Below are positions 16,324-32,571 of a stretch of DNA of 32,571 nucleotides, in pieces. How positions within the stretch are numbered: position 1 is the stretch's first letter; each line of letters starts with the position of its first letter. The notes below the pieces were generated by a model. It was not told the origin of the DNA. It worked only from the letters and a program-made list of their open reading frames with translations, and did no database searches. Made by a program: the position numbers and the translations under genes. The DNA is from Candidatus Latescibacterota bacterium (GTDB lineage Bacteria; Latescibacterota; UBA2968; UBA8231): NCBI GenBank assembly GCA_965205655.1, contig CBDBIJ010000005.1:1-32571 (forward strand), given 5' to 3'.

Positions 16324-17305
16324 ATGTGCACCGACAGAGGGAAAGGGAAGCGCCAGCGGATCCTGACAGCCGTTCTGCCTGCTCCTGTCGAACCAGTCTT
16401 CGTTGCAGGCGCAGCCGGATTACGGTTATCGCCTTGGTGATAGAGTCGGCGGGCGCCTGAACTATCGCGTTCCGGGGGTGTCCACGTACATGGAAGCCCT
16501 CGATCCGTCAATTCAGCGATGGTACCTCCCCGCGGTCCATTTCAGCGAGGCCGGCCGCCAGCGGTGGCAGTACACGAACTGGGCCAGGGACAGGCAGCAG
16601 CGATACGTCAATGCCGGCCTCGAGGGAGACAACTATTACGATTTCTTCGGGGATCTGGTGACCCGGGGTTGGGTCGTCTACAGCTGGCAACAGGTTCAGC
16701 CCGTGATCGCGAGCTCGTCGGGGATTGTCAAGGCCCAACGATACATCCGCAAGGCCGGCTACAACGGAGTCATCACCGAATACACGGCCGAGCGCTTTCA
16801 CGTGACCGGACTGTTCTCGCGAATTGGATTTCCGATAGTGGGACAGGGGGGAGCCACGTTCCAGAACTTCACCAACCTCGCCGGCGGTCGCGCTACCGCA
16901 GATGTAACTGACTTCATGACCCTCCCACTGACGTTTGTCAACAGTCACAATGGCACGGGTGCGGCCGACGCCTGGGAAGGCAACGCCTTCACGGGCTGGC
17001 TCAACAGCGAGCAGCTGAGCCAGCGACTCGAACTTCTGGTGTTGCGCCTCTCCGACGATTCTCCGGAAGACGCCGAAGGTGGGGCAATGCTCTTCAGCGA
17101 CGATCTCGAGATTTCGACAACCATCGTCCGCGACGCCCTGATCGACAGGGAGACGGTGATGGTCGAGACAGACACCGTCTTCTTCGCCAGCTCGATCGAT
17201 TTTCGCCCCGCCGTCGAAGGGGGCAAAGTACGGCAGGGCTTCTTGACCGCCGATGGCGGCGAAGACATCGTCATGAAATACCTCCTGGCGCCAGCACGAA
17301 GGTGA
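16324..17305 (+). pseudogene. Truncated paralog of the 980-aa exported protein at 27497..30439
   Basis: Colinear with the first ~350 aa of 27497..30439 (DYGxRLGDRVG, DPxIQRWYLP, DDSPEDxEGGA, QGFLTADGxExIVMKY). It has a frameshift in the signal-peptide region, a 35-aa in-frame deletion at ~16745, and has lost the C-terminal ~630 aa. Confidence 0.85.
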
Positions 17306-19989
17306 CTGCAGTGATACGGGAAAACCGGCCGGAAGCAATGAGTCAGAGCGCAACGAACCGGGGCGCACCACGGAACCCCTCGAGCCCGTCATCGCGATGG
17401 GCGATTCCCCTCATCTTTCTGCTGTCGGGAGCCTGCGGCCTCGCCTACCAAGTCGTGTGGGCGCGCATGCTCATCGTCGTCTTCGGGACGACGCTGCTGG
17501 CAGTGAGCACTGTGCTCAGCGCTGTTATGGCGGGGCTGGCGCTGGGCAGCTTCAGCTTCGGACGGTGGATCGACCACGTGCACCGACCGCTGCGCGTTTT
17601 CGCCTGTCTCGAAGCCGGCATCGGCCTGTTCGCTTTCCTGTTTCCCCAGCTCTTGCCAGTGACCGGATGGCTCGCCGCCGCCCTGCAACCCGCGGACGGT
17701 CACTCACCGGTATTTTCGATCGTGCGCTTCGTGCTCGCCTTCGGACTGTTGCTGATTCCAACCGCGTTCATGGGCGCCACCCTGCCTGTGATTTCAAAGT
17801 TCGCCGTGAGACAGTTCGTCAGGCTCGGAAGCAGCGTCGGTCTGCTCTACGCCGCCAACACCCTCGGCGCCGTCGCCGGCGTCGCGGTCGTCACCTTCGT
17901 CCTGATGGAAGCGCTGGGACTGCGGGCCAGCAGCTACGTCGTGGGATGCGTCAATCTGTGCGTAGCTGCGCTGGCCTACCTGGTCGGCGGCCGCGTGTCT
18001 ATCGTGGAGACCGCCGGCGATCCCAGAGCGTTCGTCCACCCGACTGACGCCGAGGCAACTGCAGGTCAGGCGTCGCCAGCCGGCCGGGCGATATCGTCAG
18101 CGGTCCCGATAAACCCTGTCGTTCTCAAATTGACCCTCGTCGGGTTCGCGCTGCAAGGGTTTGCGGCGCTCGGATACGAGGTGGCTTGGTTGCGCCTGTT
18201 CACCGTCGCCTTCACCATCACCTCTCACTACGAGTTCAGCATCGTGTTGATCGCCTTCCTGCTCGGGCTGAGCTTCGGCAGCTTCATCTGTAGCCGCCTT
18301 CTCGACGCGCGCAAGGACCTGCTGTCGATGTTCGGCGCGTTCCAGATCCTGATCGGCATCGTCGGCATCTCTTCGGTGGCCATATTTGCCGCCGCGTCCG
18401 ATCTGATCGGTTTCGTGCACGGAGCGAGCTCGTGGTGGCGCCACCGCGGCGGCATCTTTGGCCTGTCCTTCGGCATGATGCTCGTGCCGGCTCTGCTGAT
18501 GGGCGCGTCCTTCCCCGTCGTCAGTCGCATTTACACCCAGAGTCTGCGCACGCTCGGTCGCGGCGTCGGCTCCGTCAACGCCGCCAACAGCCTGGGCGCC
18601 ATTGGCGGCTCTCTCGCGGCCGGCTTTGTACTGATCCCGCTCGTCGGCACCGAGGACACTTTCCGCGTGCTCGGCGGCATCAACATAGTGGTCGGACTCG
18701 TGATCCTGGGCCTCCACCCGAGCCTGCGGTTGCGCTCGAAGTTGACGGCACTGGCCGTCGGCGTCGCTTCCGTCGTCGTTGTCGACTTCACGTCGCCCGG
18801 CGACCTCATGCTGCAGCTTTCCAGCCGCAACCTGGGCACGTCCGAGCTGCTCTACTATTCCGAAGGGCCCGAAGGCATCATCACCGTCAGGGGCGAGGCC
18901 GACGGCTACCGCAGAATGCTCCTCAACGGCGGCGGCCAAGTGCCTTCCGAGTACGGCTCGTTCCAGCTCTTCCGCTTACTCGGTCATCTAGCCCTGCTGC
19001 TGCACCCAGATCCCGACGACGTGCTGGTGATAGCGCTGGGCGGCGGCATCGCTCTCGGTGCGGTGGCCCAGCACGCGGAAGTCGAGCGCATAGAATGCGT
19101 CGAGCTCGTGCCCCAGGTGGTCGAGGCGGCTCAACAGGAGTTCACGCCCTACAACCACGCGATTCTCGACCGTCTCGAGGATTCCCCAATCGAACTCGTC
19201 ATCGACGACGGCCGCAACTACCTGCTGAAAACGCAGCGGCGCTACGACGTCATCACCGGAGACGCCACCCATCCCACGAGCACCGACAGCTGGGTCCTGT
19301 ACACGAAGGACTTCTACGAGCTCTGCAAGGCGCGCCTCAAGCGGGGCGGCATCGTCGTGCAGTGGCTGCCGCCCCACGGGCTCCCTGTCGACGACTTCAA
19401 GACCGCGCTGCGCACCTTTCAAAGCGTGTTCCCGCACGCCAGCTTCTGGCGCACAAATAATCACTCGATCATGGTGGGCACGCAGGACAGGCTTTCGATT
19501 CGCTTCAGCGGGCTGCGGGACAAGCTGGCTTCGGAAGCGGTGCGTGGGAGCCTCGAAGAAGTCGATCTTGACGATCCTTTCGCCATTCTGAGCTGCTACT
19601 TCTTCGGCGAGGAAGCATATCGCCGGTATGCAGGCGACGGCCCGCTGAACACAGATGATCACCCACATCTCAGCTTCGTCGGTCCTCGAGCGTTTCACGT
19701 GCGCTCGTGGCAGGTGTTGATCGACCTCACCCGTGAGATCAGCCGGCGGCCGGTTGACATCTCGCCCTACCTGGACGCTGACGACCCCGCGTGGACGCAG
19801 GCCCGGCGCGATACCATGGCCATCTATCACAAGGGCAGAGAGTTCGTGATTCAGGGTGACGTGCTGCGTCACCAGGGGAAGAAACGACCTGCATTGCGTG
19901 CCTACGAACAGGCGCTGAGGACCAACCCCCGGGAGTGGACGGCGGGCTACTACGCCACCCTGATAGACGAGCAGCTCAGCAGGCGTTGA
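17302..19989 (+). CDS. Fused multi-TM membrane domain / spermidine-synthase-like SAM-dependent transferase with C-terminal TPR-like helix pair (start may be ATG 17338)
   Basis: Duplicated membrane repeats (SGACGLAYQVVWAR / QGFAALGYEVAWLR; MGATLP / MGASFP; YAANTLGA / NAANSLGA), then VLVIALGGG, VELVPQVV, DDGRNYL and YDVITGD. Confidence 0.9.
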   Translation: MTAVIRENRPEAMSQSATNRGAPRNPSSPSSRWAIPLIFLLSGACGLAYQVVWARMLIVVFGTTLLAVSTVLSAVMAGLALGSFSFGRWIDHVHRPLRVFACLEAGIGLFAFLFPQLLPVTGWLAAALQPADGHSPVFSIVRFVLAFGLLLIPTAFMGATLPVISKFAVRQFVRLGSSVGLLYAANTLGAVAGVAVVTFVLMEALGLRASSYVVGCVNLCVAALAYLVGGRVSIVETAGDPRAFVHPTDAEATAGQASPAGRAISSAVPINPVVLKLTLVGFALQGFAALGYEVAWLRLFTVAFTITSHYEFSIVLIAFLLGLSFGSFICSRLLDARKDLLSMFGAFQILIGIVGISSVAIFAAASDLIGFVHGASSWWRHRGGIFGLSFGMMLVPALLMGASFPVVSRIYTQSLRTLGRGVGSVNAANSLGAIGGSLAAGFVLIPLVGTEDTFRVLGGINIVVGLVILGLHPSLRLRSKLTALAVGVASVVVVDFTSPGDLMLQLSSRNLGTSELLYYSEGPEGIITVRGEADGYRRMLLNGGGQVPSEYGSFQLFRLLGHLALLLHPDPDDVLVIALGGGIALGAVAQHAEVERIECVELVPQVVEAAQQEFTPYNHAILDRLEDSPIELVIDDGRNYLLKTQRRYDVITGDATHPTSTDSWVLYTKDFYELCKARLKRGGIVVQWLPPHGLPVDDFKTALRTFQSVFPHASFWRTNNHSIMVGTQDRLSIRFSGLRDKLASEAVRGSLEEVDLDDPFAILSCYFFGEEAYRRYAGDGPLNTDDHPHLSFVGPRAFHVRSWQVLIDLTREISRRPVDISPYLDADDPAWTQARRDTMAIYHKGREFVIQGDVLRHQGKKRPALRAYEQALRTNPREWTAGYYATLIDEQLSRR

Positions 19990-20077: not shown

Positions 20078-20710
20078 ATGACCGAAGCAGAGATCGAGTC
20101 GAAATGTGAAGACATCCTCACCGAGGGATTCTGCGTCCTCAAGGATCTTCTGCCAAGGCAGGTGATCGCCGACTGTGCCCGCGCCTTCGAGCCCATTCTG
20201 GAGGCGCACATGGATGAGATCAGCACCGATCCGAACCGGGGACCGAACCGCCACTATATCCGGCTTCCGTTCGAGCCTCCCTTCGCTGACCCCATCATCT
20301 ACGAGAACGAGGCAGTCCTCTCGGTCGTCGATCGCCTGCTGGGCGAGGAGGTGGCGATGGGGAGTTTAGCCACGGACACGCCACTGGACGTCACGAAAGA
20401 CAACGGCCCCTTCCAGGCAGCAAGAGGTACTCATCTCATCCCCAGGGAGGAGGGGCTGCGCAAGGTGAAGAGCGGTGAGATCCCGCTCGAGCCTGTGTTC
20501 CTGAACGCCGGTGATGTGCTGCTGCGGGATCCACGACATATTCACGGAGGCACTCCGAACCGCACGTCGACACCCAGGCCGGTGGCGGTAATCAGTTACG
20601 TGAGAAGCTGGTATCGCTTCGACAAACTGCTCGCCATCTCCAAGGCGGAGCGCGCCAAGCTGTCAGAGCGCGGTAAGCAACTGCTGCGTTTTGCGCCAAG
20701 AGAAGTGTGA
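20078..20710 (+). pseudogene. Phytanoyl-CoA dioxygenase (PhyH) family protein with an in-frame deletion that removes the HxD iron-binding motif
   Basis: GFCVLKDLLP, NGPF..ARGTH, AGDVLLRDPRHIHGGTPNRT..PRP are present. ATDTPL runs directly into DVTKDNGP with no HxD segment in between. Confidence 0.75.
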
Positions 20711-20726: not shown

Positions 20727-22289
20727 TCACTCCCGCTGCCGCAGTTTCTGCGCCTGCTCGTAGAGCCTCTTACTGTCCTCGGCCCTGCCGAGCTCCCTGT
20801 ACGCGTCACTGAGATACATGTGGGCCCGCTGGTTCCGCGGAGCCAGCGCGAGGGCCCGTTCGTATGCCGCCGCCGCTTCCTCGAAGCTCCCGAGCTGGAA
20901 GTGAGTGACTCCGATTCCGACCTGCGCCTCAACGTAGTCGGGTCGCAGGGTCAGCGCCCTGGAAAAGAATTCGACGGCCTCGTCGGGCTCGTCCATACGG
21001 GCGGAGATCACGCCCAGAATGCCGTACACCTCGGGTATGGTGCTGTCCAGCCTGGCGGCTCGCAGCAGTGTCTTGCGGGCGGAAGCCAGCTCGCCGAGGC
21101 GCAGGTAGACCTCGCCCAGGCGGGCGTGTCCCATGGGGTCCGAGGGGTCCAGATCCGCGCTCTTCTGCAGGTAGACAGCGGCCTCGGAGAACCTGCCCTG
21201 CTGACTCAGGACGAGGCCGAGTCCGGTGTTGGAATCCCTGTGATCGGAATCGATTTCGACGGCTCGTTGAAACTCCAACAGGGCGGCGTCGAGGTCTCCC
21301 GCCAGCATGTCTTTCAGACCCATGTGGTAATGGTCTCTCCACGAGCCGATGAACATCATCGGGTACGGAGGCGCCGAGATCTCGGCATGCAGACGCGGCA
21401 TCTGCCGGCGCAGCCGTTCGGAGCGCTTCAGCTCGCGCCTGCCTTCCTCGCGCCTGCCCAGGCTCATGTAGAGGGTTCCCAGATTGAGGCGCATCCTCGG
21501 AGCGCGGGGATTCAGTACCACCCCCTTTTCCATGACCTCGGCTGCCTCTTCACGACGCCCGAGATCGCGATAGGCCAGTCCCAAACGGAAGAACGCTTCG
21601 GCATCGCCAGGCGCAAAGGCCACAGCTTTCTCAAAGGATGCAGCAGCTTCTTCAGAGCGACCTTGATGTCTGAGGATCCGGCCGAGATTCTTGTGGGCCT
21701 GTGCCATCGTCGAGTCCATCGACAGGGCGGCGCGAAACGCCTGCTCCGCGAGCTTCGAGCTGTCGCGGTAATTGTGCATGACCCCCAGGTTGTAGTGCGG
21801 CAAGCTGCGCCCTGGGTCCAGATCGATCGCCTCCTGGTACGCGGCTATGGCGTCTTCAGCATCCTGTTCGTGGATCTCGGTCCACGGCCGGGCGGCGTAG
21901 CGCGCCGCATGGATGGCTCCGTGAATCTCGTGTAGCTCGGTCTGCCGCGGCTCGAGGGAGAGCGCCTTCTCGATCGCTTCGTGCGCCTCCGAGTACTTGC
22001 CCAGCGCCAGAAGTGTCCTCGACAGGTAGCTGTAAGTGACGCGAAGGTCATTTCCCGCGCGTTCAGCCGCACGCAGAGCTTCGAGCGCCTCAGCTAGATC
22101 ACCAGCGATGAAGTGCCGGACTCCCGCTGCGGTATTCTGATCGACCTCTTCGGAGCATGACGTGGCGACAATCGAGAGCGCGAGAAGTGACAGCCTGGCA
22201 CTGCGCCACAGGCGGCTAATTTTCGACACGCTGACCTCGCTGCAATTCATGCGCACAATATACAGATGAGCAGCATCACAGTGGAGCAT
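20727..22289 (-). CDS. Tetratricopeptide-repeat protein, probably exported or a lipoprotein (true start likely slightly downstream)
   Basis: More than ten TPR-like units (e.g. AIDLDPGRSLPHYNLG, AVAFAPGDAEAFFRLG, ALTLRPDYVEAQVGIG); LSLLALSIVATSC near the N-terminus. Confidence 0.9.
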   Translation of the reverse strand: MLHCDAAHLYIVRMNCSEVSVSKISRLWRSARLSLLALSIVATSCSEEVDQNTAAGVRHFIAGDLAEALEALRAAERAGNDLRVTYSYLSRTLLALGKYSEAHEAIEKALSLEPRQTELHEIHGAIHAARYAARPWTEIHEQDAEDAIAAYQEAIDLDPGRSLPHYNLGVMHNYRDSSKLAEQAFRAALSMDSTMAQAHKNLGRILRHQGRSEEAAASFEKAVAFAPGDAEAFFRLGLAYRDLGRREEAAEVMEKGVVLNPRAPRMRLNLGTLYMSLGRREEGRRELKRSERLRRQMPRLHAEISAPPYPMMFIGSWRDHYHMGLKDMLAGDLDAALLEFQRAVEIDSDHRDSNTGLGLVLSQQGRFSEAAVYLQKSADLDPSDPMGHARLGEVYLRLGELASARKTLLRAARLDSTIPEVYGILGVISARMDEPDEAVEFFSRALTLRPDYVEAQVGIGVTHFQLGSFEEAAAAYERALALAPRNQRAHMYLSDAYRELGRAEDSKRLYEQAQKLRQRE

Positions 22290-22435: not shown

Positions 22436-24664
22436 ATGCTACGGAAACATGACGCCGTTGCCGGATGGATTTCGGCGGCGATCCTGCTCGCCGGGACAAC
22501 GACGACATCAGCCGTCACCGATGTGATCATCGTCGGCGGTGACGAGGGTCTCACCTGGGAAAGCGGTGGGGGAGCCATCCCCGCGACGCTGATTGTGTCC
22601 GCGAAAAAGGTGGAGCGCACCAACGCGCCCGGAGGCGTGGTGGATTTCGATCCGTCCGCCAGGCCCAACTGGATATTTCCGAAGCAGGCGGACCCATCCG
22701 ATAACATTCTGATCGGCTTCGATTCCGACGCCCGCGGGGGCAAGGTCGAAACGCCCATCCCTTCTTTCCGATATCTTGAGAGCAGCTTTCCCAACCTGTA
22801 CGACAACGACGGCGACACGGCGCTAGAGGTGATTGTCGAGTCGGGCGCGTTCGGTCTCATCATTCAGTTCGACTTGGGCGCCGTTTTCGGCGTCAATCGA
22901 CTCCGTTTCTTCCCGCGCAACGCCGCTCCCGATTTCCCGTCTCGGCTGTTTCCCAATCAGCGGAAGTTCCTGAAGGGTTTCGAGCTGTTCGTCAACGACG
23001 GCGCGCCAGAGTCGATACGAGACGAGGCCTTCATCTGGGAGACGATCGCCCTCGAGGGACAGAACGACGAGCCAGTGGTCGACGTACATATCCCGACCCG
23101 TTTCGTCCGCCACATCCGGCTGAAATCCCTTACTCAAGCCGGCTTCGAAATGGCCGAATTCCAGGTGTTCACCGAAGGGTTCGTGCCGCAGGCCCTCTAC
23201 GTGTCGAACATCTTCGACTTCAGAAAGAAGACCATCCTGGGCAACCTGCGCTACATCCAGGAGCAGGTCGGCGACCCACAGCGATCCCAGGTGCAGATCC
23301 GCACCCGCCTGGGAATCGATCCCGATCCGGTTGAGTACACGCGTATCGGTGTACAGACTTCCGGGAGGGTGGTCAGGAGAGGGGCTGATTTCGAGTCTGT
23401 TCCGATCGACGTACCCTGGATGAAAGCTGAAGACGTCGACGAAAGCCGGCTCAGCAACCTGATAGAGACCGTCCTGGATAATGCGGAGAACGACGGACGT
23501 GAGTCCCTGCTCATGTACAAGAGCCTGTCCCTCGAAGATCGAGAAGAGATCACGCTCGACCAGGACAGGTATTTCGATCTCGAAAACGAGGAGCGTTCGA
23601 GCATCCGCGACGATCTGACCAACTGGAGCCCGTGGTCGCCTCCGTACCCCGTGGAGGCGGTTGTCGAGGAGGGCCAACTCCGGGAATCGTCGATGGGTGC
23701 GGCGATCTTTGCCGCCGAGCCACGCCGATACTTCCAGTTCAGGGTCGAATTCTCCAGCGAGATTTTCAATGCCGGATCGGGCGTCGGCGAACTGGCCATC
23801 GACGCCTCTCGACCCGCGTTCGCTGACTCGCTCGTAGCCGAGATCTTCCCTCGTTCCAGCGTCTCAGGGGAAGAAACGGATTTCACCTACGCGGTGCGAT
23901 ACACGAGCAAAGGGTTGGACGCGGGCTTCGATCGATTCCATATCACGACTCCCTTAAAGGTGCGGGACATCGGCAAGGTACAGATCATTGGCGCGGGCGA
24001 TTCCATCGAACGGGAAGCGGATTTTACGGGTGCCTCTCTGGAGCAGCTGCCCGTGTCCCGAAGCGAGGTCGCGGTGACGGAAGTGACTGACGAGGGTTTT
24101 ACCCTCTCCTTCCCGCGCATCAGGACGAGCGGCACTGTGCTCAAAGTTGAATTCAGAAGCACCGTACTGAGGGTATGGACGCGCTTCGGCGGCGAGGCGC
24201 TGAATTCAGACGATCTGGCCTCCGGCCAGGCGGCAGTCGCGGGCAATGCGGCCGACTTGAGTCTGCCGGGGCTCGAAGATCCCGACACGGAGGCGATAGG
24301 CACCTCAATCGCCAGAAATCTGTTCGTCGACGTGCCGGTCGTAAACGCCCTTCTGATCAACGTCTCGGCGGGCTCCGGCGTGTTCACCCCCAACGGCGAC
24401 GGAGTCAATGACATCGCGGCGATCGAGTACGACATCACCAATATCGGCACGTCCACACACGTGGAGGTTACGGTATTCGATCTTTCCGGGAGGCGGGTCA
24501 GGGCATTCAGTCAACTCCAGGACAGCGGCCGCTACGCCCAGACGTGGGACGGCCGCGACGAAGCCGGCAATATGGTACCGCCAGGCAACTATCTCTATGT
24601 GGTGGAGCTCGAAGCGGGAATCGGCTCCGAGAAGAAACCGGGGATACTCAGCGTCGCCTATTGA
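22436..24664 (+). CDS. Exported protein with discoidin/F5-8-like jelly-roll region and C-terminal FlgD-Ig (T9SS-CTD-like) domain
   Basis: Signal peptide MLRKH...AAILLAGTTTTSA; IQFDLGAVFGVNRLRFFPR...RHIRLKS...EMAEFQVF; C-terminal FTPNGDGVND...VFDLSGRRVR...WDGRDEAGNMVPPGNYLY. Confidence 0.8.
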   Translation: MLRKHDAVAGWISAAILLAGTTTTSAVTDVIIVGGDEGLTWESGGGAIPATLIVSAKKVERTNAPGGVVDFDPSARPNWIFPKQADPSDNILIGFDSDARGGKVETPIPSFRYLESSFPNLYDNDGDTALEVIVESGAFGLIIQFDLGAVFGVNRLRFFPRNAAPDFPSRLFPNQRKFLKGFELFVNDGAPESIRDEAFIWETIALEGQNDEPVVDVHIPTRFVRHIRLKSLTQAGFEMAEFQVFTEGFVPQALYVSNIFDFRKKTILGNLRYIQEQVGDPQRSQVQIRTRLGIDPDPVEYTRIGVQTSGRVVRRGADFESVPIDVPWMKAEDVDESRLSNLIETVLDNAENDGRESLLMYKSLSLEDREEITLDQDRYFDLENEERSSIRDDLTNWSPWSPPYPVEAVVEEGQLRESSMGAAIFAAEPRRYFQFRVEFSSEIFNAGSGVGELAIDASRPAFADSLVAEIFPRSSVSGEETDFTYAVRYTSKGLDAGFDRFHITTPLKVRDIGKVQIIGAGDSIEREADFTGASLEQLPVSRSEVAVTEVTDEGFTLSFPRIRTSGTVLKVEFRSTVLRVWTRFGGEALNSDDLASGQAAVAGNAADLSLPGLEDPDTEAIGTSIARNLFVDVPVVNALLINVSAGSGVFTPNGDGVNDIAAIEYDITNIGTSTHVEVTVFDLSGRRVRAFSQLQDSGRYAQTWDGRDEAGNMVPPGNYLYVVELEAGIGSEKKPGILSVAY

Positions 24665-24711
24665 CGGCGGGCGGCATACGGCTGCCACCCCGATTGGAGA
24701 AGAGATCTGTT

Positions 24712-27495
24712 TTGGATATTCATCGCAAAGGCCTCGTCCTCGGTCTGGTGTATCTGACGCTGGCCGCAACGGTCCTCGCCCAGGACTATGGCGCCCGACT
24801 CGGCGTCAAACGTGGAGGCACGGTAAGCTTCGAGCCTTCGGGGCCGGGCGTCTTGTTCGGCGCCCTCGATCCAACTGTGCGGCGCTGGTTCGTCCCTCAG
24901 GAACTCTACAACGAGTACCGCTGGCGCCAGTGGGAATACTCGAACTACGCGCGCGCTCCGTATCAGCGGTACGTCAACACGGCGCTCCAAGGGGACTACT
25001 TCTACGACTCTTTCGGCGATTTCGTGAGCCGCGGCTGGCTGATCTACGACTGGCGTGAAAACCGGCCCGCGAAAGAAGGCAGCAGCATTTTCAAAGGTTC
25101 GAACTTCGCCGGCTTTTTCAGCAATCTCACGGTCAGCAGCGACTCCCGGGGTCAGTACGACTATGCCATCACGGTGGGCAATCGGATCCGCACAACGCTG
25201 ACGCCGATGACGTTTTCGAAGCCCAACTTCAGCGGAATGCAGATCGATTTCGCAGCTGACAGATACTCGGCCACCATCCTGGCTTCCAGAATCAGCGACC
25301 CGACCGAGGGTGTGACCCTTTCCCCCCGGCAGTGGACCAACGCGACGAGCCTGGTCGGGGGCCGGGCGACCGTGCAGATAGGCGACTTCATCACCGTGGG
25401 TGGGACCCTGGTGGATGCGCGCAACGCCCACACCTCGCTCGACATGTTTTCGGGCAACTTCCTCGCCGGAAACCTGACCTCGGGGCAGAGCAGCACGCCC
25501 ATCTCGGCGATTGCTATCGTTCTCAGCGACGACACCCCCGAGGACGGGGTGGGCGGCGCGGTGCTGTTCCGCCACGACATACGTATCAGAAGCAAGGACT
25601 TCGAGTCCGGTCTCGAGCGGGTACAGACTCTAGAGCAGGTGGTGCGACCGGGCGCCGAATGGCCCACCGTGTTCGGGGAGTTCTCGCGCAAAGGCGTTCT
25701 GGCCGCCGACGGGGCCGAGCGCATCATCCTGAACTACGATTTCACCGATCCGGCCTACACCGGACCGGATCTCACCAGCATCACCGACGTGGAGTTCGAG
25801 TACCTGCTTGCCAACGACTACAAGGTCGAAATGTGGTCGAACCGTCAGACGGGAAGACGCGAAGTCCCGCCCGCACCTCTGACCAGCGCCGTCATCGACG
25901 AGTCAGAGCCGGTACTGCTCACCGTAAAACGGGCCAGCGGCAACATCAAAGACATTTCCAACGTGCGCGTCGTCAAATTCAACTACGGCTTGCCGACGGC
26001 GAACTTGGTAGGCGGTTTCACGATCGACGGCAGGGACGTGTTCGGGTGGGATATCAACGGCGAGTGGGATCGCAATATACGATACGCCCAGTATCCCAAC
26101 GCCGCCCTGTTCGCCACAGCCAAGGGCCACGAAATCTCATCGGAGAGTGCCGAAGCCGCGCTCCTCACGATCGCCAAGCAAGAGTATCCGTACTTCGCCT
26201 TTGGCGAGTTCTACTCCATCGATGGCGACTACTCGACGAGTGCCTTTGTGACTGACACCGATGGGGAGTTGCGGTACGACTTCCCCCTGCGATCGGTCTA
26301 CGAATTCGTCGACGACAACGACGACCACGACGGCAGGCCCGACTGGGGGCGAGTCGGCAACCAGCTCGTAGACCAGCAGGTGTTTCCGGGCTGGGACGAA
26401 AACAACGACTTCATCTCCGATTTCAACCAGAACGACAACACCGCGGTGCCCAACATCATACCCGACTACGAGGAGCCCTTTCTCAGGCACCAAGTCGATC
26501 GCCCGGAGTTCCTGTTCGGCATCGATCTCAACAACAACGGTTGGATCGACCGTTTCGAGGACGACGAGCTGCCCGATTATCCGTACAAGGCCGATCGGAG
26601 GGGCTACAACGTCTTCACCGGGGCTCACCTGACTCCGGAATCACGCGTCTTCGTCGGCCGCGTTGACGAGCGCATGTTCACCGACGATCGCGACAACCGC
26701 TCAACGTACGGGATGTTCACCTTCGACAGGGATTTCGCCGGACTGGGGAGAGTCCGGATCTTCGATATGCTCAAGCGGGTCGAAGATACGATCCCGGAGG
26801 ATCGGCGGGCACCCACGCCGTATCGAAGTGCGCCCGCACAGCCGCTGGTAAGCGATATCCTTCCCGCTCCCGACACGTGGATCAACACGGCGTGGTTGGG
26901 CTTCGACTACACCGCGATTCCGCGCCTCAAGGTGATCAGTAAGCTCAAGTACGAATTCTACAACCAGACCAAGGACGACCCCCGCGACATCGACGGGCGT
27001 CAGCTGAACGGCACGACAAGCTTCTTCGGCCTCATCAACAAGCTGGAGTACAACTATGCGATTGGGAATCTCGAGTTGCAGCCGAAATTCAAGAGCGAGC
27101 TGCTGACGCAGGACGCGTTCGCAAAAGAAGATGAGGATCGCAGGCACTGGACGGGGTTGGTCACCCTGCTGGCGCAGCTGCCCGTCCTGAGACGGAGCGT
27201 GTTAACAGGCGGCCTCGAGCTCGCCCAGTTCGCCGACAGAGAGACGGATGAGGATGAGATGGTCGACTCGGGGACGACTGGTGAAACGGGTGACGAGCGT
27301 TCGGCTATCCTGGCTCTGCAGCTCAACAACACCTCCCAGTATCTGGGGTATCGGGTCACCACCCAGGTCGGTCTGCGCTTCGGCCGCGTCTTCCGGGAAC
27401 TGGTGGAGCAAGAAGAGCCTACGGTGTACGAGAAGCGGTTCGAAGGGTGGACGGAGAAGACGAGCTTCATAACGCTCTACGCCGGGATCGATTGA
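24712..27495 (+). CDS. Uncharacterised exported protein (~927 aa), probable outer-membrane beta-barrel with D/N-rich insert; paralog A
   Basis: GGAGA RBS and TTG start, signal peptide ...LTLAATVLA|QDYG; many amphipathic strand-like segments; DDNDDHDGRPD, DENNDFISD and DLNNNGWID loops; full-length similarity to the next gene. Confidence 0.75.
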   Translation: MDIHRKGLVLGLVYLTLAATVLAQDYGARLGVKRGGTVSFEPSGPGVLFGALDPTVRRWFVPQELYNEYRWRQWEYSNYARAPYQRYVNTALQGDYFYDSFGDFVSRGWLIYDWRENRPAKEGSSIFKGSNFAGFFSNLTVSSDSRGQYDYAITVGNRIRTTLTPMTFSKPNFSGMQIDFAADRYSATILASRISDPTEGVTLSPRQWTNATSLVGGRATVQIGDFITVGGTLVDARNAHTSLDMFSGNFLAGNLTSGQSSTPISAIAIVLSDDTPEDGVGGAVLFRHDIRIRSKDFESGLERVQTLEQVVRPGAEWPTVFGEFSRKGVLAADGAERIILNYDFTDPAYTGPDLTSITDVEFEYLLANDYKVEMWSNRQTGRREVPPAPLTSAVIDESEPVLLTVKRASGNIKDISNVRVVKFNYGLPTANLVGGFTIDGRDVFGWDINGEWDRNIRYAQYPNAALFATAKGHEISSESAEAALLTIAKQEYPYFAFGEFYSIDGDYSTSAFVTDTDGELRYDFPLRSVYEFVDDNDDHDGRPDWGRVGNQLVDQQVFPGWDENNDFISDFNQNDNTAVPNIIPDYEEPFLRHQVDRPEFLFGIDLNNNGWIDRFEDDELPDYPYKADRRGYNVFTGAHLTPESRVFVGRVDERMFTDDRDNRSTYGMFTFDRDFAGLGRVRIFDMLKRVEDTIPEDRRAPTPYRSAPAQPLVSDILPAPDTWINTAWLGFDYTAIPRLKVISKLKYEFYNQTKDDPRDIDGRQLNGTTSFFGLINKLEYNYAIGNLELQPKFKSELLTQDAFAKEDEDRRHWTGLVTLLAQLPVLRRSVLTGGLELAQFADRETDEDEMVDSGTTGETGDERSAILALQLNNTSQYLGYRVTTQVGLRFGRVFRELVEQEEPTVYEKRFEGWTEKTSFITLYAGID

Positions 27496-27496
27496 G

Positions 27497-30439
27497 ATGA
27501 GGCGAAACTCTGTACACATCTGCGCCGCCGCCGCTCTGCTGCTGGGCGCCGGCAGCGCACTACAGGCGCAACAGGACTACGGTTTGCGTCTTGGAGACCG
27601 CGTTGGCGAGCGTGTGATCTACCGGGCCGGAGGCGTGGCCAACTACATGGGCGCGATGGATCCCACCATACAGCGCTGGTACCTGCCATCCGTCCACTTC
27701 AGCGAACGCGGCCGCCAGCAGTGGGAATACACCAACTGGGCAGCGCAGCGCCAACGGCGCTATGTGGACGTCGCTCTCGAGGGTAATTACTACTACGACT
27801 TTTTCGGCGAGAGAATCACCCAGGGGTGGGTGGTCTACGACTGGCGACAGACGCAGCCGGTCATCTCAGAAGGCTCGCGGGTTGCGAAGGCGAGCCGTTA
27901 TTCCCGGTGGTTCAATCGTCTGGTCCTCTCCACGGACATCAGCGGCGGTCGCGGATCCTCGATCATGGTGGGCGACGAGATCGCGATGACGCTGACCCCG
28001 ATGACCTTCCGCAAAGCCGGTTTCAACGGGCTGGTGACCGAGTACACCGAAGACCGTTTTCGCGCCACCGGGCTGTTCTCTCGAATATCCCAACCCATTC
28101 TCAGCGAAGGGGCTGGTTTCTTTCAGCACTGGACCAACCTGGTCGCCGGACGCGCCACCGCGGACGTGACCGATTTCCTCACTCTCGGCGTTACGTTCGT
28201 CAACAGTCACCACGGCACCGGTTCGAGCGAGGCCTTCCCGGGCGACTCCTTCCAGGGCGCTCTGAACGCGGAACAGCTATCCGAGCGCCTCGACCTGCTC
28301 GTCCTGCGCCTCGCCGACGACTCCCCCGAGGACAACGAGGGAGGGGCCATACTCTTCAGCAGCGACATCGAGATTTCCACGACGCTCGCCCGCGAGACGA
28401 CCGAGGATGGCGAGGTCGTGCTGGTAAAAGTCGACACGCTTATCTCAGCCAACGACATCGGATTTCGGCCGCTGATCGAGGGCGGCAAGCGGCAACAGGG
28501 CTTTCTGACCGCGGACGGTCCCGAGGAGATCGTCATGAAGTACTACCTGGGCCCCGAAGAGGGTCAGGACGAGACAGGTACTTTGAGGGCCAGCCTGCAG
28601 CAGCAGCTCGGTTTGACTCTCGACGAAGCGGAAAACGCGCTGTCGGCGATCAGGAACGTGCGCTTTCGACTGGTGCTCGGCAACGACTACCGCGTGGAAA
28701 TGAGCTCCGATCGGCAAACCGACCGGTTCGGAGTGCCGCAGTTCAGACTGGTCACCAGGGCCGATCGCAACATCAAGAATCAGCTGAATCAGCAAGAGGT
28801 CGTCTTCGACTACGGCATTCCCACGGCCAACCAGATCATCGGCCTGACGACCGAGATCAGCGATTTTCACGGCGTCGATTTCTACGGCGAGGTCAACGTC
28901 AATACCGAGTACCGGAAATACCCCGCCATCGGCCGCAGTCGGCACAAGGCCTTGTCAGGTATCGAGGGTGACCGCAATTCCCTGGGCTGGATGGCCAATC
29001 TGTCCTGGAGGAAGGGGCCCTGGTCTCTGTTTGCCGAAGGGTTCGGAATGGAGGACGGGTATTCGACGAGCATCAAGCCGCTGCGCCAGAGGGGAACGAC
29101 GGACTACTCGCCCGAGGCGACCAACCTGCTGTACGACTACGTCGACGACAACGACGATCACGACAGGCACCCGGATCAGCTGCGCGTGGGAGAGGGAAGT
29201 CTCATCCCGCAGTCTTTCCAGCGGGCACCGACCGTCAAGGCACAGGGCGTCGCCGATCCCGAAGTGTTTCCCGGGTATGACGAGAACGGCGATTTCATAT
29301 CCGACTTCAATCAGAACAACATATTCGATCGCAGGAACTTCTTCCCCGACTACGACGAGCCCTTCCTGCGCTACCGCAGCGATCGTCCCGAATTCCTGTT
29401 TGGAATCGACCTCAACAACAACGGCTGGGTCGACCGCTTCGAGAACGACAACGAGCCGGACTATCCCTACAACAAAGACCACTGGGGGCACAACATTTAC
29501 GGCAGCGCCGAGATCACTCCCGCATCGAGGTTTCGCGTGGGCCAGCTGCGGCAGGAGAGGAAGAAGAGCGCGAGCGAGAACACGACGACATACGCCATCG
29601 TCACCTTCGACAACGACTGGGCGAGCTGGGGCCGCGTGCGGGCATTCGACATGCTCAAGAGAGCCGAGGACGACATTCCCGATCACCTCGTTCAGTGGGT
29701 CATACCTCGCACCGAGTTCGGCTCCGCGTCCGAGTCGAGCGGCCGGCTGGAAGCGGTAGAAGACCCCCTGGCTGCCGCGGACACCTGGATCAACACGCTG
29801 TACGGGGACTGGAACTACGAGAGCCGTCGCGGGTGGTCGACGTTTCACCGCTTCAAGTGGGAGACATGGCGCCAGCAGGATACGGATGTGGAGTTCCTGC
29901 TGGATGATTCGGGTGCGAGGACTCTCGACGACGAAGGGAATCCCGTCGTCCTCTTCGATCCGCTCGGACCGGAGGGGCGCAACGGCCGCGAGCAGTCCGG
30001 CGTCTTCGGGGTCATCAACAAAGTTGACTACGTGCTCTATCTCGGATCACTACGGGTAGATCCACGTTACAAGAGCGAGTTCCTGAGGGAGACGCCATTC
30101 AGCCTCGACCTGACGAAGAGGCGCTCCTGGGATTCGATATTCTTCCTGCGATTGAGCTTTCCGGCCCTGCGTTCCACCGTGCTTCAGGCGGGGCTGGAAC
30201 AACGATTCTTCTTCAACCTCAAGGGAGACGAACGCGATATCGACGCCGGCGAGCGCACCGGCGACCTGCACGGCTCGGCGCTGGCCCTGCAGCTGACCAC
30301 AAGGAGCAAGTATCTGGGATACAACATGACCACTCAGCTCGGGATCAGGATCGATCGTCGTTCACTGGAGATCGCCGACGAAAAAAGGGAAAGCGAGACC
30401 TCAGGACTGTCATTCGTGTCTATTTTCGCCGGGCTGTGA
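27497..30439 (+). CDS. Uncharacterised exported protein (980 aa), probable outer-membrane beta-barrel with D/N-rich insert; paralog B
   Basis: Signal peptide MRRN...AALLLGAGSALQA|QQDYG; starts 1 nt after the previous stop; shares TLTPMTF, NDYxVEM, YGxPTAN, DRPEFLFGIDLNNNGWxDRFE, FDMLKRxED, DTWINT and YLGYxxTTQxG with paralog A. Confidence 0.78.
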   Translation: MRRNSVHICAAAALLLGAGSALQAQQDYGLRLGDRVGERVIYRAGGVANYMGAMDPTIQRWYLPSVHFSERGRQQWEYTNWAAQRQRRYVDVALEGNYYYDFFGERITQGWVVYDWRQTQPVISEGSRVAKASRYSRWFNRLVLSTDISGGRGSSIMVGDEIAMTLTPMTFRKAGFNGLVTEYTEDRFRATGLFSRISQPILSEGAGFFQHWTNLVAGRATADVTDFLTLGVTFVNSHHGTGSSEAFPGDSFQGALNAEQLSERLDLLVLRLADDSPEDNEGGAILFSSDIEISTTLARETTEDGEVVLVKVDTLISANDIGFRPLIEGGKRQQGFLTADGPEEIVMKYYLGPEEGQDETGTLRASLQQQLGLTLDEAENALSAIRNVRFRLVLGNDYRVEMSSDRQTDRFGVPQFRLVTRADRNIKNQLNQQEVVFDYGIPTANQIIGLTTEISDFHGVDFYGEVNVNTEYRKYPAIGRSRHKALSGIEGDRNSLGWMANLSWRKGPWSLFAEGFGMEDGYSTSIKPLRQRGTTDYSPEATNLLYDYVDDNDDHDRHPDQLRVGEGSLIPQSFQRAPTVKAQGVADPEVFPGYDENGDFISDFNQNNIFDRRNFFPDYDEPFLRYRSDRPEFLFGIDLNNNGWVDRFENDNEPDYPYNKDHWGHNIYGSAEITPASRFRVGQLRQERKKSASENTTTYAIVTFDNDWASWGRVRAFDMLKRAEDDIPDHLVQWVIPRTEFGSASESSGRLEAVEDPLAAADTWINTLYGDWNYESRRGWSTFHRFKWETWRQQDTDVEFLLDDSGARTLDDEGNPVVLFDPLGPEGRNGREQSGVFGVINKVDYVLYLGSLRVDPRYKSEFLRETPFSLDLTKRRSWDSIFFLRLSFPALRSTVLQAGLEQRFFFNLKGDERDIDAGERTGDLHGSALALQLTTRSKYLGYNMTTQLGIRIDRRSLEIADEKRESETSGLSFVSIFAGL

Positions 30440-30627
30440 GCAGAAACAATTGATAACTCATTTGGATTAATTGAGCTTATAGAACTTTTGCCCGAACGCC
30501 AGCTCACGACTTGATGTTATCTGCTTGACTTCGGCCGTGCAAATCCGCTACTTACCTCGTAGCGAAGGATCACAATCCCGCCACTATTGCCTCGCCACAA
30601 CCGTTCCTATATGGGGAGATGCCGACC

Positions 30628-31527
30628 ATGAAGAAGACGTCCTTGCTACTGACAGCCATAGCTGCGGTATTCGCACTGAACTCGGCCGCATCAGCGCATG
30701 ATCCGCCGGATTTCCTGGGCGGCGTGTGGCAATGGCCGGAAAACGCCCTGCCCGTCCTCGATGGCGATCTGAGTGAGTGGGAGGTCATTCCCTCCGATCT
30801 GTGGATCACCGAGCAGGACGTGGTACAAAGCAACGGTGCCCCGAGCACCTACAGCGGCGACCTCGATGTATCATCCATCGCTTTCCGCTGGACGATTGCC
30901 TGGAACGAGGAGACCAATCGCACCTACCACGCCTTTGAGCGGTTCGACGACATTGACCTGGGCGCCCATGAGACCTACGAGGTGGGCATGGATGCAGATC
31001 ACGCCGGTGGCTTCATGTGGGACACAGAGGGCATGACCGACGAGGAGAAACAGCGTGCCCGCGGTCGCAATGCCCAGCCCTACCACTATGCGTTCGACGA
31101 AGGTTTCACTGAGAACTGGTCGTGGTTCTGGATGACCGCGGCCGACTGGTACCGCACTCCCGAGTACACCGACAATGGCCACCGGGTAGAGGGCGTTTCC
31201 GGCTCGGGAGGCGAGACGCGTGTGTTTGCTGAGTGGTATAATGTTTGGTGGGACGATTTCAACTGGGAGGATCCCAACTCCCCCCAGCACGACTTCGAAG
31301 TCGATGAAATTGTTGGCTGGACCGTCGAGGTGTTCGACATCGATGGCCCGCTTGAAGACGACTGCAACTGCTACTCGCGCTGGACCCTCGGCCCGAACGA
31401 CGAGAATTTCGGCGATGCCGACTTCTACCCCGACTTCATCCTGCTGCCGGTCGACGAGAGCGCCGATTTCGTGACGGCAGTCGAGGAAGACAGCTGGGGC
31501 AGAATCAAGACATCCCTCGGCAGATAG
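30628..31527 (+). CDS. Exported acidic, Trp-rich protein with CBM9/DOMON-like start and C-terminal TAVEEDSWGRIK motif
   Basis: RBS GGGGAG; signal peptide MKKTSLLLTAIAAVFALNSAASA; PVLDGDLSEW motif typical of CBM9/DOMON-like ligand-binding domains. Confidence 0.72.
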   Translation: MKKTSLLLTAIAAVFALNSAASAHDPPDFLGGVWQWPENALPVLDGDLSEWEVIPSDLWITEQDVVQSNGAPSTYSGDLDVSSIAFRWTIAWNEETNRTYHAFERFDDIDLGAHETYEVGMDADHAGGFMWDTEGMTDEEKQRARGRNAQPYHYAFDEGFTENWSWFWMTAADWYRTPEYTDNGHRVEGVSGSGGETRVFAEWYNVWWDDFNWEDPNSPQHDFEVDEIVGWTVEVFDIDGPLEDDCNCYSRWTLGPNDENFGDADFYPDFILLPVDESADFVTAVEEDSWGRIKTSLGR

Positions 31528-31549
31528 ACGATTCCCAGCCGGCTTTTGT

Positions 31550-31593
31550 AGAAGGGATGGATCCGTTGTGGATTCATCCCTTCTTTGTATTTT
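31550..31593 (+). terminator. Rho-independent terminator-like hairpin
   Basis: 15-bp stem agaagggatggatcc / ggattcatcccttct (one G-U pair), 5-nt loop, followed by ttgtatttt; begins ~20 nt after the stop at 31527. Confidence 0.75.
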
Positions 31594-31642
31594 ACGCACA
31601 GAGAAATGGCTCTCGGAGTAAACGCGACGGACGGTGGCTGAG

Positions 31643-32571
31643 ATGGTATGGGCGATGATCCTCCTGCTGGCCTGCCTGGGGGGAGCAGATCAGGCCGATG
31701 CGCTGACGATCTACCGCATCGGAGGCCAAAATCAGCCGCGCCCCACCAGGGCGGATGAGGACGGGATCGATTTCGTCCAGTTGATGTGGCAGGCGCTGGA
31801 CGAGGACCGGTTCGGAAGCTCGCACCAGCTGGAATTGACGACTTTCGCGGAACCGGTTCGGCTGGATTCCAGCGTCAACCTCACGCCGCTGCTCAGGGAC
31901 CGGGGCGGCGTGATCAAGTTGAACAACGGATACGCGTTTCAAGATCACCCCACGCTGGACTTGATCTTCGACGAGGACGACGACACGGCCTTCTCGGGCC
32001 TGCAGGGCGACCAGAGTGGGAGTACCTTTCTCAAATCGATGTGGATCGGTCTGGGAGGGCTCTTCCCCATCAGCCGCATCGTCATTCGGCCGACAACCGA
32101 CCACTATCACGATCGCTTCATCTCCGAGTTCACGCTGGGAACCAACGACGGAGACAAACAGAAACACGGGCTCCGGGAGGCGAGGTACGACTATCGGGAG
32201 GCCTTCGTCGATTACGATATCCAGTACCAGGCCAAGGAGAATACAGAACCCGTCCTCGACCTGCGCCTGCGCGATGAGCCGGTCGAGAACCTGTTCTTTT
32301 TTGCACCTTCGGGAAACTGGGAGATCGCCGAGATGGAGATTTACGGCCACGGTTTTGCCTCGCGGGCAAACTACACCTCCAACATCATCCCCCTGGACGG
32401 GCGATCGAGCCTGGGCGATCTCGTATGGGCCGGACACCAGGACTCGGGGGCGGTGATCGAGCTGAGCACGCGCAGCGGCGACGACGCCGATCCGAATCTT
32501 TACTGGCGCAACACGTTCCGGGGAGCAGAGAGGACGCGCCTGGATCACGACGGCAAGCCACTGACGCGCAG
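31643..32571 (+). CDS. Exported discoidin-like protein, paralog of 22436..24664 (partial, runs off the window; absent from the ORF track)
   Basis: MVWAMILLLACLGGADQADA|LTIYRIGG..., open to the window end. WEIAEMEIYGHGFASRANYTSNII...LGDL...STRSGDDADPNLY aligns with FEMAEFQVFTEGFVPQALYVSNIF...LGNL...RTRLGIDPDPVEY. Confidence 0.8.
   Translation, partial: MVWAMILLLACLGGADQADALTIYRIGGQNQPRPTRADEDGIDFVQLMWQALDEDRFGSSHQLELTTFAEPVRLDSSVNLTPLLRDRGGVIKLNNGYAFQDHPTLDLIFDEDDDTAFSGLQGDQSGSTFLKSMWIGLGGLFPISRIVIRPTTDHYHDRFISEFTLGTNDGDKQKHGLREARYDYREAFVDYDIQYQAKENTEPVLDLRLRDEPVENLFFFAPSGNWEIAEMEIYGHGFASRANYTSNIIPLDGRSSLGDLVWAGHQDSGAVIELSTRSGDDADPNLYWRNTFRGAERTRLDHDGKPLTR

Follow-up and report, generated by a model that had tools for sequence, protein, structure and literature searches.

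The window analysed here is the entire 32,571-nucleotide (nt) contig C5 of a 4.0 Mb, 84%-complete Candidatus Latescibacterota genome, hereafter the host genome. It contains a cluster of five co-oriented genes, here named A1, B1, B2, C, and A2, in which two large predicted outer-membrane β-barrel proteins (B1 and B2) stand together with three further proteins. The original prediction had described the same five genes in the same order, with a divergent TPR gene upstream, and all six were confirmed in place. The cluster is one of many copies in the host genome and is a satellite of a larger system with master loci elsewhere. Its features are as follows.

22436-24664, + strand: A1, 742 amino acids (aa), secreted, with a CBM32/F5-8C-fold domain, two further β-sandwiches, and a C-terminal domain of type IX secretion system (T9SS) type
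24353-24661, + strand: Tyr-terminated sorting domain of A1 (TPNGDGxND ... VAY), of a tail class distinct from the type A tails of the host genome
24712-27495, + strand: B1, 927 aa, TTG start behind GGAG, predicted outer-membrane β-barrel of an unannotated family
25432-25989, + strand: inserted β-sandwich of B1 (aa 241-426), carrying a conserved DDSPED motif and predicted to lie outside the cell, on the side of the long loops
26221-26595, + strand: acidic, Asp/Asn-rich loop of B1 (aa 504-628), the most conserved part of the family
27497-30439, + strand: B2, 980 aa, barrel paralogue of B1, starting 1 nt past the B1 stop
30619-31527, + strand: C, 302 aa, secreted, CBM9-like, with a conserved C-terminal AVExxxWGxIK tail
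31550-31594, + strand: intrinsic-terminator-like hairpin 3' of C, 16 pairs followed by a T-rich tail
31634-32571 (open at the contig end), + strand: A2, 312 aa visible, a second A-family protein

Each of the five proteins has an N-terminal hydrophobic stretch and no later membrane helix in a simple hydropathy scan. Spacing is tight at the start of the cluster (47 nt between A1 and B1, 1 nt between B1 and B2) and wider between B2 and C (179 nt). The cluster had earlier been described as operon-like, but a single transcript spanning all five genes is doubtful, because of the B2-C gap, the hairpin after C, and the inversion or relocation of C in relatives such as loci L007-L014 and L033-L036. Terminator-like sites in the region were as numerous as expected by chance, but the hairpin after C far exceeded the other seven in length. 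The intergenic gaps of the cluster showed no sigma-70 promoter. A2 is cut off, with its tail out of view, because the window is the whole contig; its visible part shares 55% identity with the protein that takes its place in related locus L001, which is 651 aa long and Tyr-tailed. Contigs from four sequencing runs, each of a different study, span the locus and differ little from it, and one of these runs may be the source sample.

B1 and B2 are 37% identical over 991 columns. Neither they nor A2 matched a Pfam or NCBIfam model at E ≤ 0.1, and B1, its sandwich domain, and the alignments of the B and C families gave no significant PDB match by sequence or profile. Relatives of the barrels numbered 989 among 7,999 scored candidates, and 732 cluster representatives were also found. 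The nearest named Atlas cluster was DUF6029 (score 0.89), which is a lead only. An AlphaFold2 model of B1, built from a 150-row alignment, reached a predicted local distance difference test score (pLDDT) of 86.8 and a predicted template modelling score of 0.83. Its secondary structure contains 23 alternating strands, with the short turns all on one side and the long loops all on the opposite side. A 24th strand probably lies at residues ~108-116, and strand number and closure were read from the secondary-structure pattern and fold searches rather than counted on coordinates. Fold searches returned only generic membrane barrels of many kinds (Z ≤ 13.8, high root-mean-square deviation (rmsd)), and the absence of a standout family among them is not proof of a new fold. 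The model thus predicts that B1 is an outer-membrane β-barrel of about 24 strands, in keeping with the barrels foreseen in the original prediction and with a membrane rather than a soluble fold; for B2, the assignment follows from its 37% identity to B1, for which the model was made.

Both large insertions of B1, the sandwich and the acidic loop, are on the long-loop side, and the pattern of short turns and long loops would place the sandwich outside the cell. The acidic loop has 32 positions conserved in at least 80% of 76 diverse barrels and is confidently modelled even though it lacks regular secondary structure. Judging by its motif, it may bind calcium. Residues 20-91 are poorly modelled and variable, with only a short YxNY motif conserved.

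A1 was modelled with a pLDDT of 89.3. Residues 86-250 superposed on CBM32 with Z 15.1 and an rmsd of 2.0 over 123 residues, recovering a galactose-binding-like jelly-roll fold; the same fold also matched SusE-like BT2857 (Z 12.3). This bears out the discoidin-like label that A1 had been given and predicts a CBM32/F5-8C domain of sugar-binding-like character. The C-terminal domain of A1 matched CHU_C at 43.7 bits (cut-off 27), scored 31.2 against TIGR04131, below its cut-off of 35, and matched in fold the tails of PorU (Z 13.0, rmsd 2.2) and PorZ (Z 11.1). This agrees with the first likening of the tail to T9SS sorting domains. We attempted to predict a complex of B1 (24-927) with the A1 tail (648-742), and the scores of 0.00 in two runs, with controls also unfolded, are evidence neither for nor against an interaction.

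Tails ending in Tyr form a class of their own. The host genome encodes ~30 dispersed type A-like tails and 12 intact TPNGDGxND tails ending in Tyr, and the two groups separate by score. Eleven of the 12 Tyr-ended tails are on contigs with barrel genes, and the remaining one is on a 4-kb contig. We selected 79 loci (L001-L079) as close relatives of B1, and in these Tyr ends 219 of 225 tails of the TPNGDGxND class, with only 2 type A tails present. In one closed relative, 19/21 full-length CHU_C matches were within 10 kb of a barrel, a zone making up 6.6% of the chromosome. At host C38:16264-19957 and C110:50699-59990, cargo genes with variant tails adjoin PorV-family genes, which suggests conventional cargo-shuttle pairs alongside the giant-barrel system.

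The CBM9-like label given to C is supported indirectly. C scored 0.97, on language-model features, to an Atlas cluster in which 13% of members carry CBM9_1, and a relative matched CBM9_1 at 4.6e-6; C itself had a single chance-level Pfam match, and its alignment matched nothing in the PDB. In its AVExxxWGxIK tail, V, E, W, and K are invariant in 16/16 aligned sequences. Eleven open frames of the host genome end in this motif (C, at 31482-31527 of the window, and 10 others), and it also ends proteins outside the C family. No description of the motif was found in the literature, and it is possibly a further sorting or docking signal.

The host genome also encodes T9SS translocon genes. SprA (C68:35030-41281), two PorU, and several PorV-family genes all scored over curated cut-offs. 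GldM and GldN were not found in the 84%-complete host genome, with control genomes also silent, and GldM scored over its cut-off in 0/151 genomes of the phylum (controls silent; GldL and GldK not searched genome-wide). SprA was present in 150 of these 151 genomes, in 145 over the cut-off. The phylum apparently has a type IX translocon without its known motor.

The survey of 151 phylum genomes, which are related to one another, allowed us to ask what accompanies the barrels. Barrels were present in 95/151 genomes, often in dozens of copies per genome. The Tyr tail was found in 81/151, a lipoprotein of the master loci (described below) in 92/151, and a giant TPR protein in 72/151. All three were restricted to barrel-positive genomes and were found in none of the 56 barrel-negative ones. 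Gene order was likewise conserved: the 79 close-relative loci hold 84 barrel runs, 4 at a locus edge, and a co-oriented Tyr-tail gene lies directly upstream in 77 of the other 80. A C-type gene was present in 65/79 loci. Taxonomic labels of the relatives were mostly Latescibacterota, Gemmatimonadota, or Handelsmanbacteria, with few other or uninformative ones, and 20 distant homologues, where named, carried only Latescibacterota or Gemmatimonadota labels. Recurrent around the 116 barrel loci fetched were SurA-like peptidyl-prolyl isomerases (PPIases; 59), membrane glycosyltransferase-like TPR proteins (48), and ASPIC/UnbV FG-GAP proteins (37).

Loci of distant families share a fuller, master layout, consisting of Tyr-tail cargo, a PorV-like gene, one to three barrels, a TPR protein of ~1,100 aa, ExbB, ExbD, a DUF4159 protein with an N-terminal membrane helix, and a lipoprotein. 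Four genomes, each of a different family, have ExbB in a master locus (L085, L092, L095, and L099), and ExbD is present twice in two master loci. The lipoprotein can carry a TonB-like AgmX/PglI domain, which scored over its cut-off in two cases. In three distant families, the tailed cargo is immediately followed by a gene for a PorV-like protein of 307-404 aa, not for a large barrel. In the host genome, C146 carries master genes, ExbB among them, next to its A and B genes, and C143 carries master genes next to C genes; several are in frameshifted pieces. Frameshifts, from either assembly error or decay, split many genes of the system in the host contigs C143, C146, C91, C144, and C73. The original prediction had recorded no TonB signature, which holds within the window, but it missed the ExbB, ExbD, TonB-like, giant TPR, and PorV-like genes of the master loci. 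Because master loci carry ExbB, ExbD, and TonB-like genes, the absence of a TonB signature from the window does not imply an unpowered system. In one genome (G017), loci L104 and L108-L111 share a recurring layout in which a ~650-aa protein with a type A tail and a single Tyr-tail protein accompany three barrels and a giant TPR; such triplets suggest hetero-trimers.

Barrels greatly outnumber tailed cargo in some genomes. Barrel matches compared with full Tyr tails were 65 (some of them fragments) versus 2 in G096, 16 versus 1 in G033, and 6 versus 1 in G036. With up to ~60 matches against 2 tailed cargos in a genome, barrels are not one-to-one shuttles. We then considered the genes surrounding 20 barrel loci without Tyr-tail cargo in G096. 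Neighbours in catabolic categories made up 42/117 around barrels versus 5/115 in 20 random regions, and at least one such neighbour was present at 17/20 barrel loci versus 5/20 controls. The categories were PhyH dioxygenases, sulfatases, glycosidase-type enzymes, PIG-L deacetylases, sugar-acid enzymes, and DUF6785 membrane proteins (E ≤ 1e-9), with open frames filtered by a crude composition score and proteins above 1,300 aa excluded.

From the computed barrel fold, tail class, linkage, and co-occurrence, we infer a pathway of export, docking, energisation, and transport. We propose that the cluster belongs, as a satellite, to a capture and import complex coupled to a motor and analogous but not homologous to SusC/D, with surface lectins exported by T9SS; we consider this reading about equally likely to be right or wrong. 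B1 and B2 would be large outer-membrane barrels, a well-supported prediction, and would probably form a hetero-oligomer. A1 and A2 would leave the cell through the host SprA by virtue of their Tyr-ended tails, probably to be collected by the PorV-like barrel of a master locus, and would dock outside the barrels as ligand-binding lids of CBM32 type, with C as a small CBM9-like accessory. Gene linkage suggests that an ExbB-ExbD-ExbD proton motor, supplied in trans, would act through TonB-like proteins and the giant TPR scaffold on the periplasmic N-terminus of the barrels. Given their neighbourhoods, different paralogues may import different glycans or other polar organics for the adjacent sulfatases, glycosidases, and dioxygenases. 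More tentatively, and with doubts outweighing confidence, the barrels may be a new class of ~24-stranded proton-driven importers unrelated to TonB receptors, with SusD-like lids brought out, by means of a third, Tyr-ended signal, through a type IX translocon that has no Gld motor. Between the two roles named in the original prediction, import is favoured and a dedicated secretion or display apparatus is less favoured, such that the prediction as a whole is partly supported.

A close parallel to the proposed complex is provided by the SusC/SusD utilisomes of Bacteroidota, in which a large barrel with surface partners is encoded at many paralogous loci with catabolic neighbours and is energised by ExbB/ExbD in trans. 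SusC-type TonB-dependent transporters have a 22-stranded barrel with a plug domain, and SusD is their lipoprotein partner. The present system shares with them a barrel with surface ligand-binding partners, paralogous loci, and catabolic neighbours, and it may likewise be energised by ExbB/ExbD in trans, as ExbB/ExbD and TonB-like genes are tied to the barrels by genetic linkage in master loci. It differs in that B1 and B2 lack a plug (PF07715) or TonB-receptor domain, the barrel profile aligned to a relative's TonB receptor with a probability of 0.9%, and B1 probably has ~24 strands (23 read and one inferred) instead of 22. The partners are T9SS-tailed proteins rather than SusD lipoproteins, and no SusD-family lipoprotein was found among the window proteins or 42 representative neighbours.

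Several observations weigh against import. We identified no gate in B1 or B2, because neither shows a recognisable plug domain or TonB box and the segment at residues 20-91 varies and is modelled with low confidence. No motor gene and no glycosidase belong to the module in the window, and the PorV-like genes of the master loci score under the family cut-off. The co-occurrence across the phylum amounts to few independent losses, and at the strict threshold several barrel-positive families yielded no giant TPR protein. The neighbourhood test comes from one genome, with 20 loci hand-picked from ~55 genes and categories set after the first list, and insertion into accessory islands could also explain the catabolic neighbourhood. 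TonB-dependent receptors are not simply displaced by the barrels, because barrel-rich genomes retain them, with 12 plug matches in the host genome and 4-29 across its family. DUF6785 transporters do not track barrels: they were found in 0/13 genomes of one barrel-positive family yet do occur in families that have no barrels, which does not support DUF6785 as a dedicated inner-membrane partner.

The strongest competing explanation casts the barrels as shuttles or anchors dedicated to T9SS, outsized functional counterparts of PorP/SprF that each collect from SprA the Tyr-tailed adhesin or lectin encoded upstream and display it. According to PMC12618676, type B cargo of F. johnsoniae needs a cognate PorP/SprF shuttle, usually encoded directly downstream, and the cargo-then-barrel order in 77/80 runs mirrors this arrangement. 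As in SprB-SprF and PG1035-PorP-PorE, the tail is CHU_C-positive, the cargo lies directly upstream of the barrel, and the host has SprA, PorU, and PorV-family genes. The restriction of the Tyr tail class to barrel-positive genomes also favours shuttles, as do the searches for PorP/SprF, which was found in 0/63 same-family genomes and not in the host genome, where control genomes were also silent. We did not treat PorP/SprF and barrels as mutually exclusive, as the matches in 25/30 of a barrel-negative family were borderline (~20-28 bits). However, barrels exceed tailed cargo by up to ~30-fold, many have no cargo nearby, solitary copies do not share the position directly after cargo, and in three distant families that position is held by the PorV-like gene. 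PorP-like shuttles have 14 strands and ~33 kDa (PMC9143113), as opposed to ~24 strands here. PorP/SprF and PorV shuttles are FadL-type barrels of ~300-400 aa, whereas B1 and B2 are three times larger, with at least 23 strands, no PF11751 or NF033709 match, and no similarity to PorP or PorV. The A1 tail departs from type B cargo in folding like PorU/PorZ tails, ending in Tyr, and scoring under the TIGR04131 cut-off, and the system departs from type B systems in that GldM and GldN were not found. We regard shuttles as unlikely.

Alternatively, the barrels may be passive, substrate-selective large porins for which the lectins concentrate ligand, with the motor genes serving the assembly or handling of secreted partners. 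The missing plug and TonB box, tandem pairs and triplets reminiscent of oligomeric porins, and solitary barrel copies within catabolic islands are consistent with this explanation. It sits poorly with the restriction of the giant TPR protein and lipoprotein to barrel-positive genomes, with giant TPR genes directly after barrel triplets, and with a 24-strand lumen, which would presumably require a gate. We therefore consider passive porins quite improbable.

Least probable, and in our judgement very unlikely, is an adhesion or surface-motility machine like the myxobacterial Agl-Glt, which combines a TolQ-like and two TolR-like proteins, TonB-like and TPR proteins, three barrels, and an adhesin: master loci do have ExbB with two ExbD, AgmX/PglI domains (a weak GltG match), a giant TPR protein, and up to three barrels, but dozens of scattered barrel paralogues beside catabolic enzymes are hard to reconcile with motility. 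The parts list is the same in Agl-Glt, with a TolQ/TolR-type motor, TonB-like C-terminal domains, and several barrels, which likewise have N-termini that are hard to predict in the absence of the TPR partner (PMC11761067). The Myxococcus barrels are unrelated to those here, which come with T9SS-type cargo and a large paralogue expansion in catabolic islands. Among the proteins scanned, no Glt family scored over its cut-off (no genome-wide search was made), with the likeness at domain level in AgmX/PglI, and with GltG and GltE under cut-off.

Returning to the proposed import complex, we compared it with two further systems. Fimbrial ushers are 24-stranded barrels, and PapC and FimD resemble B1 in strand number and in having an inserted β-sandwich, with weak fold matches. 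They differ in that the B1 insertion is on the long-loop side, the fold matches were no better than those to other barrels, no usher Pfam match was found, and chaperone and pilin genes were absent among the scanned window and neighbour proteins. Uncharacterised 5:2 motor operons with a TPR gene, two heterologous tolR/exbD genes, and vWA force transducers are described in PMC12204202. The TPR gene and two tolR/exbD genes of those TPR-tolQ-tolR-tolR operons recur here, whereas the transducer candidates are DUF4159 or AgmX/PglI proteins; the terms DUF4159, AgmX, and Latescibact do not appear in that paper's text. On the features tested, the system falls outside SusC, PorP/SprF, and ushers, although its layout resembles each. 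No description of the barrel family was found in the literature, a search that most subscription journals and supplements lay outside.

The rest of the window holds further genes around the cluster.

16367-17305, + strand: truncated B2-like paralogue, N-terminal third only, 58% identical to B2 and 66% to the B2 of L001
17302-19989, + strand: fused MFS/spermidine-synthase-like membrane protein with TPR, over the NF037959 cut-off
20078-20710, + strand: PhyH-family dioxygenase (Pfam), the enzyme type most often found beside barrels
20727-22289, - strand: divergent TPR protein (Pfam TPR), a variable accessory

The truncated B2-like gene, which runs into the fused gene (16367-19989), is probably what a deletion has left of a second barrel locus. 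The family sharing the Pfam domain of the fused gene was found in 12/116 fetched loci. The divergent TPR gene is 41% identical to a TPR gene upstream in L040, and its position holds a PPIase or membrane-TPR gene in other loci. Between 566 and 15211, the window carries type I restriction genes (HsdR, HsdS, and YgjP-like), a trypsin-like gene, a mandelate-racemase-family gene, and four transposases (Mutator, DDE_3, IS66, and ISL3).

Few types of large outer-membrane barrel are known, and each defines a major machine. An unannotated barrel family inherited with a sorting signal, a lipoprotein, a TPR scaffold, and a proton motor points to an unrecognised envelope machine. Its parts are defined sufficiently for heterologous expression and structure work. 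It could widen the known range of type IX secretion by a lineage in which SprA is present and GldM is not detected, and could explain how these uncultured bacteria feed, with substrate clues paralogue by paralogue. If the barrels are indeed a new class of proton-driven importers with T9SS-delivered lids, the utilisome would have been invented a second time, independently, and much of this uncultured phylum would feed mainly by it.

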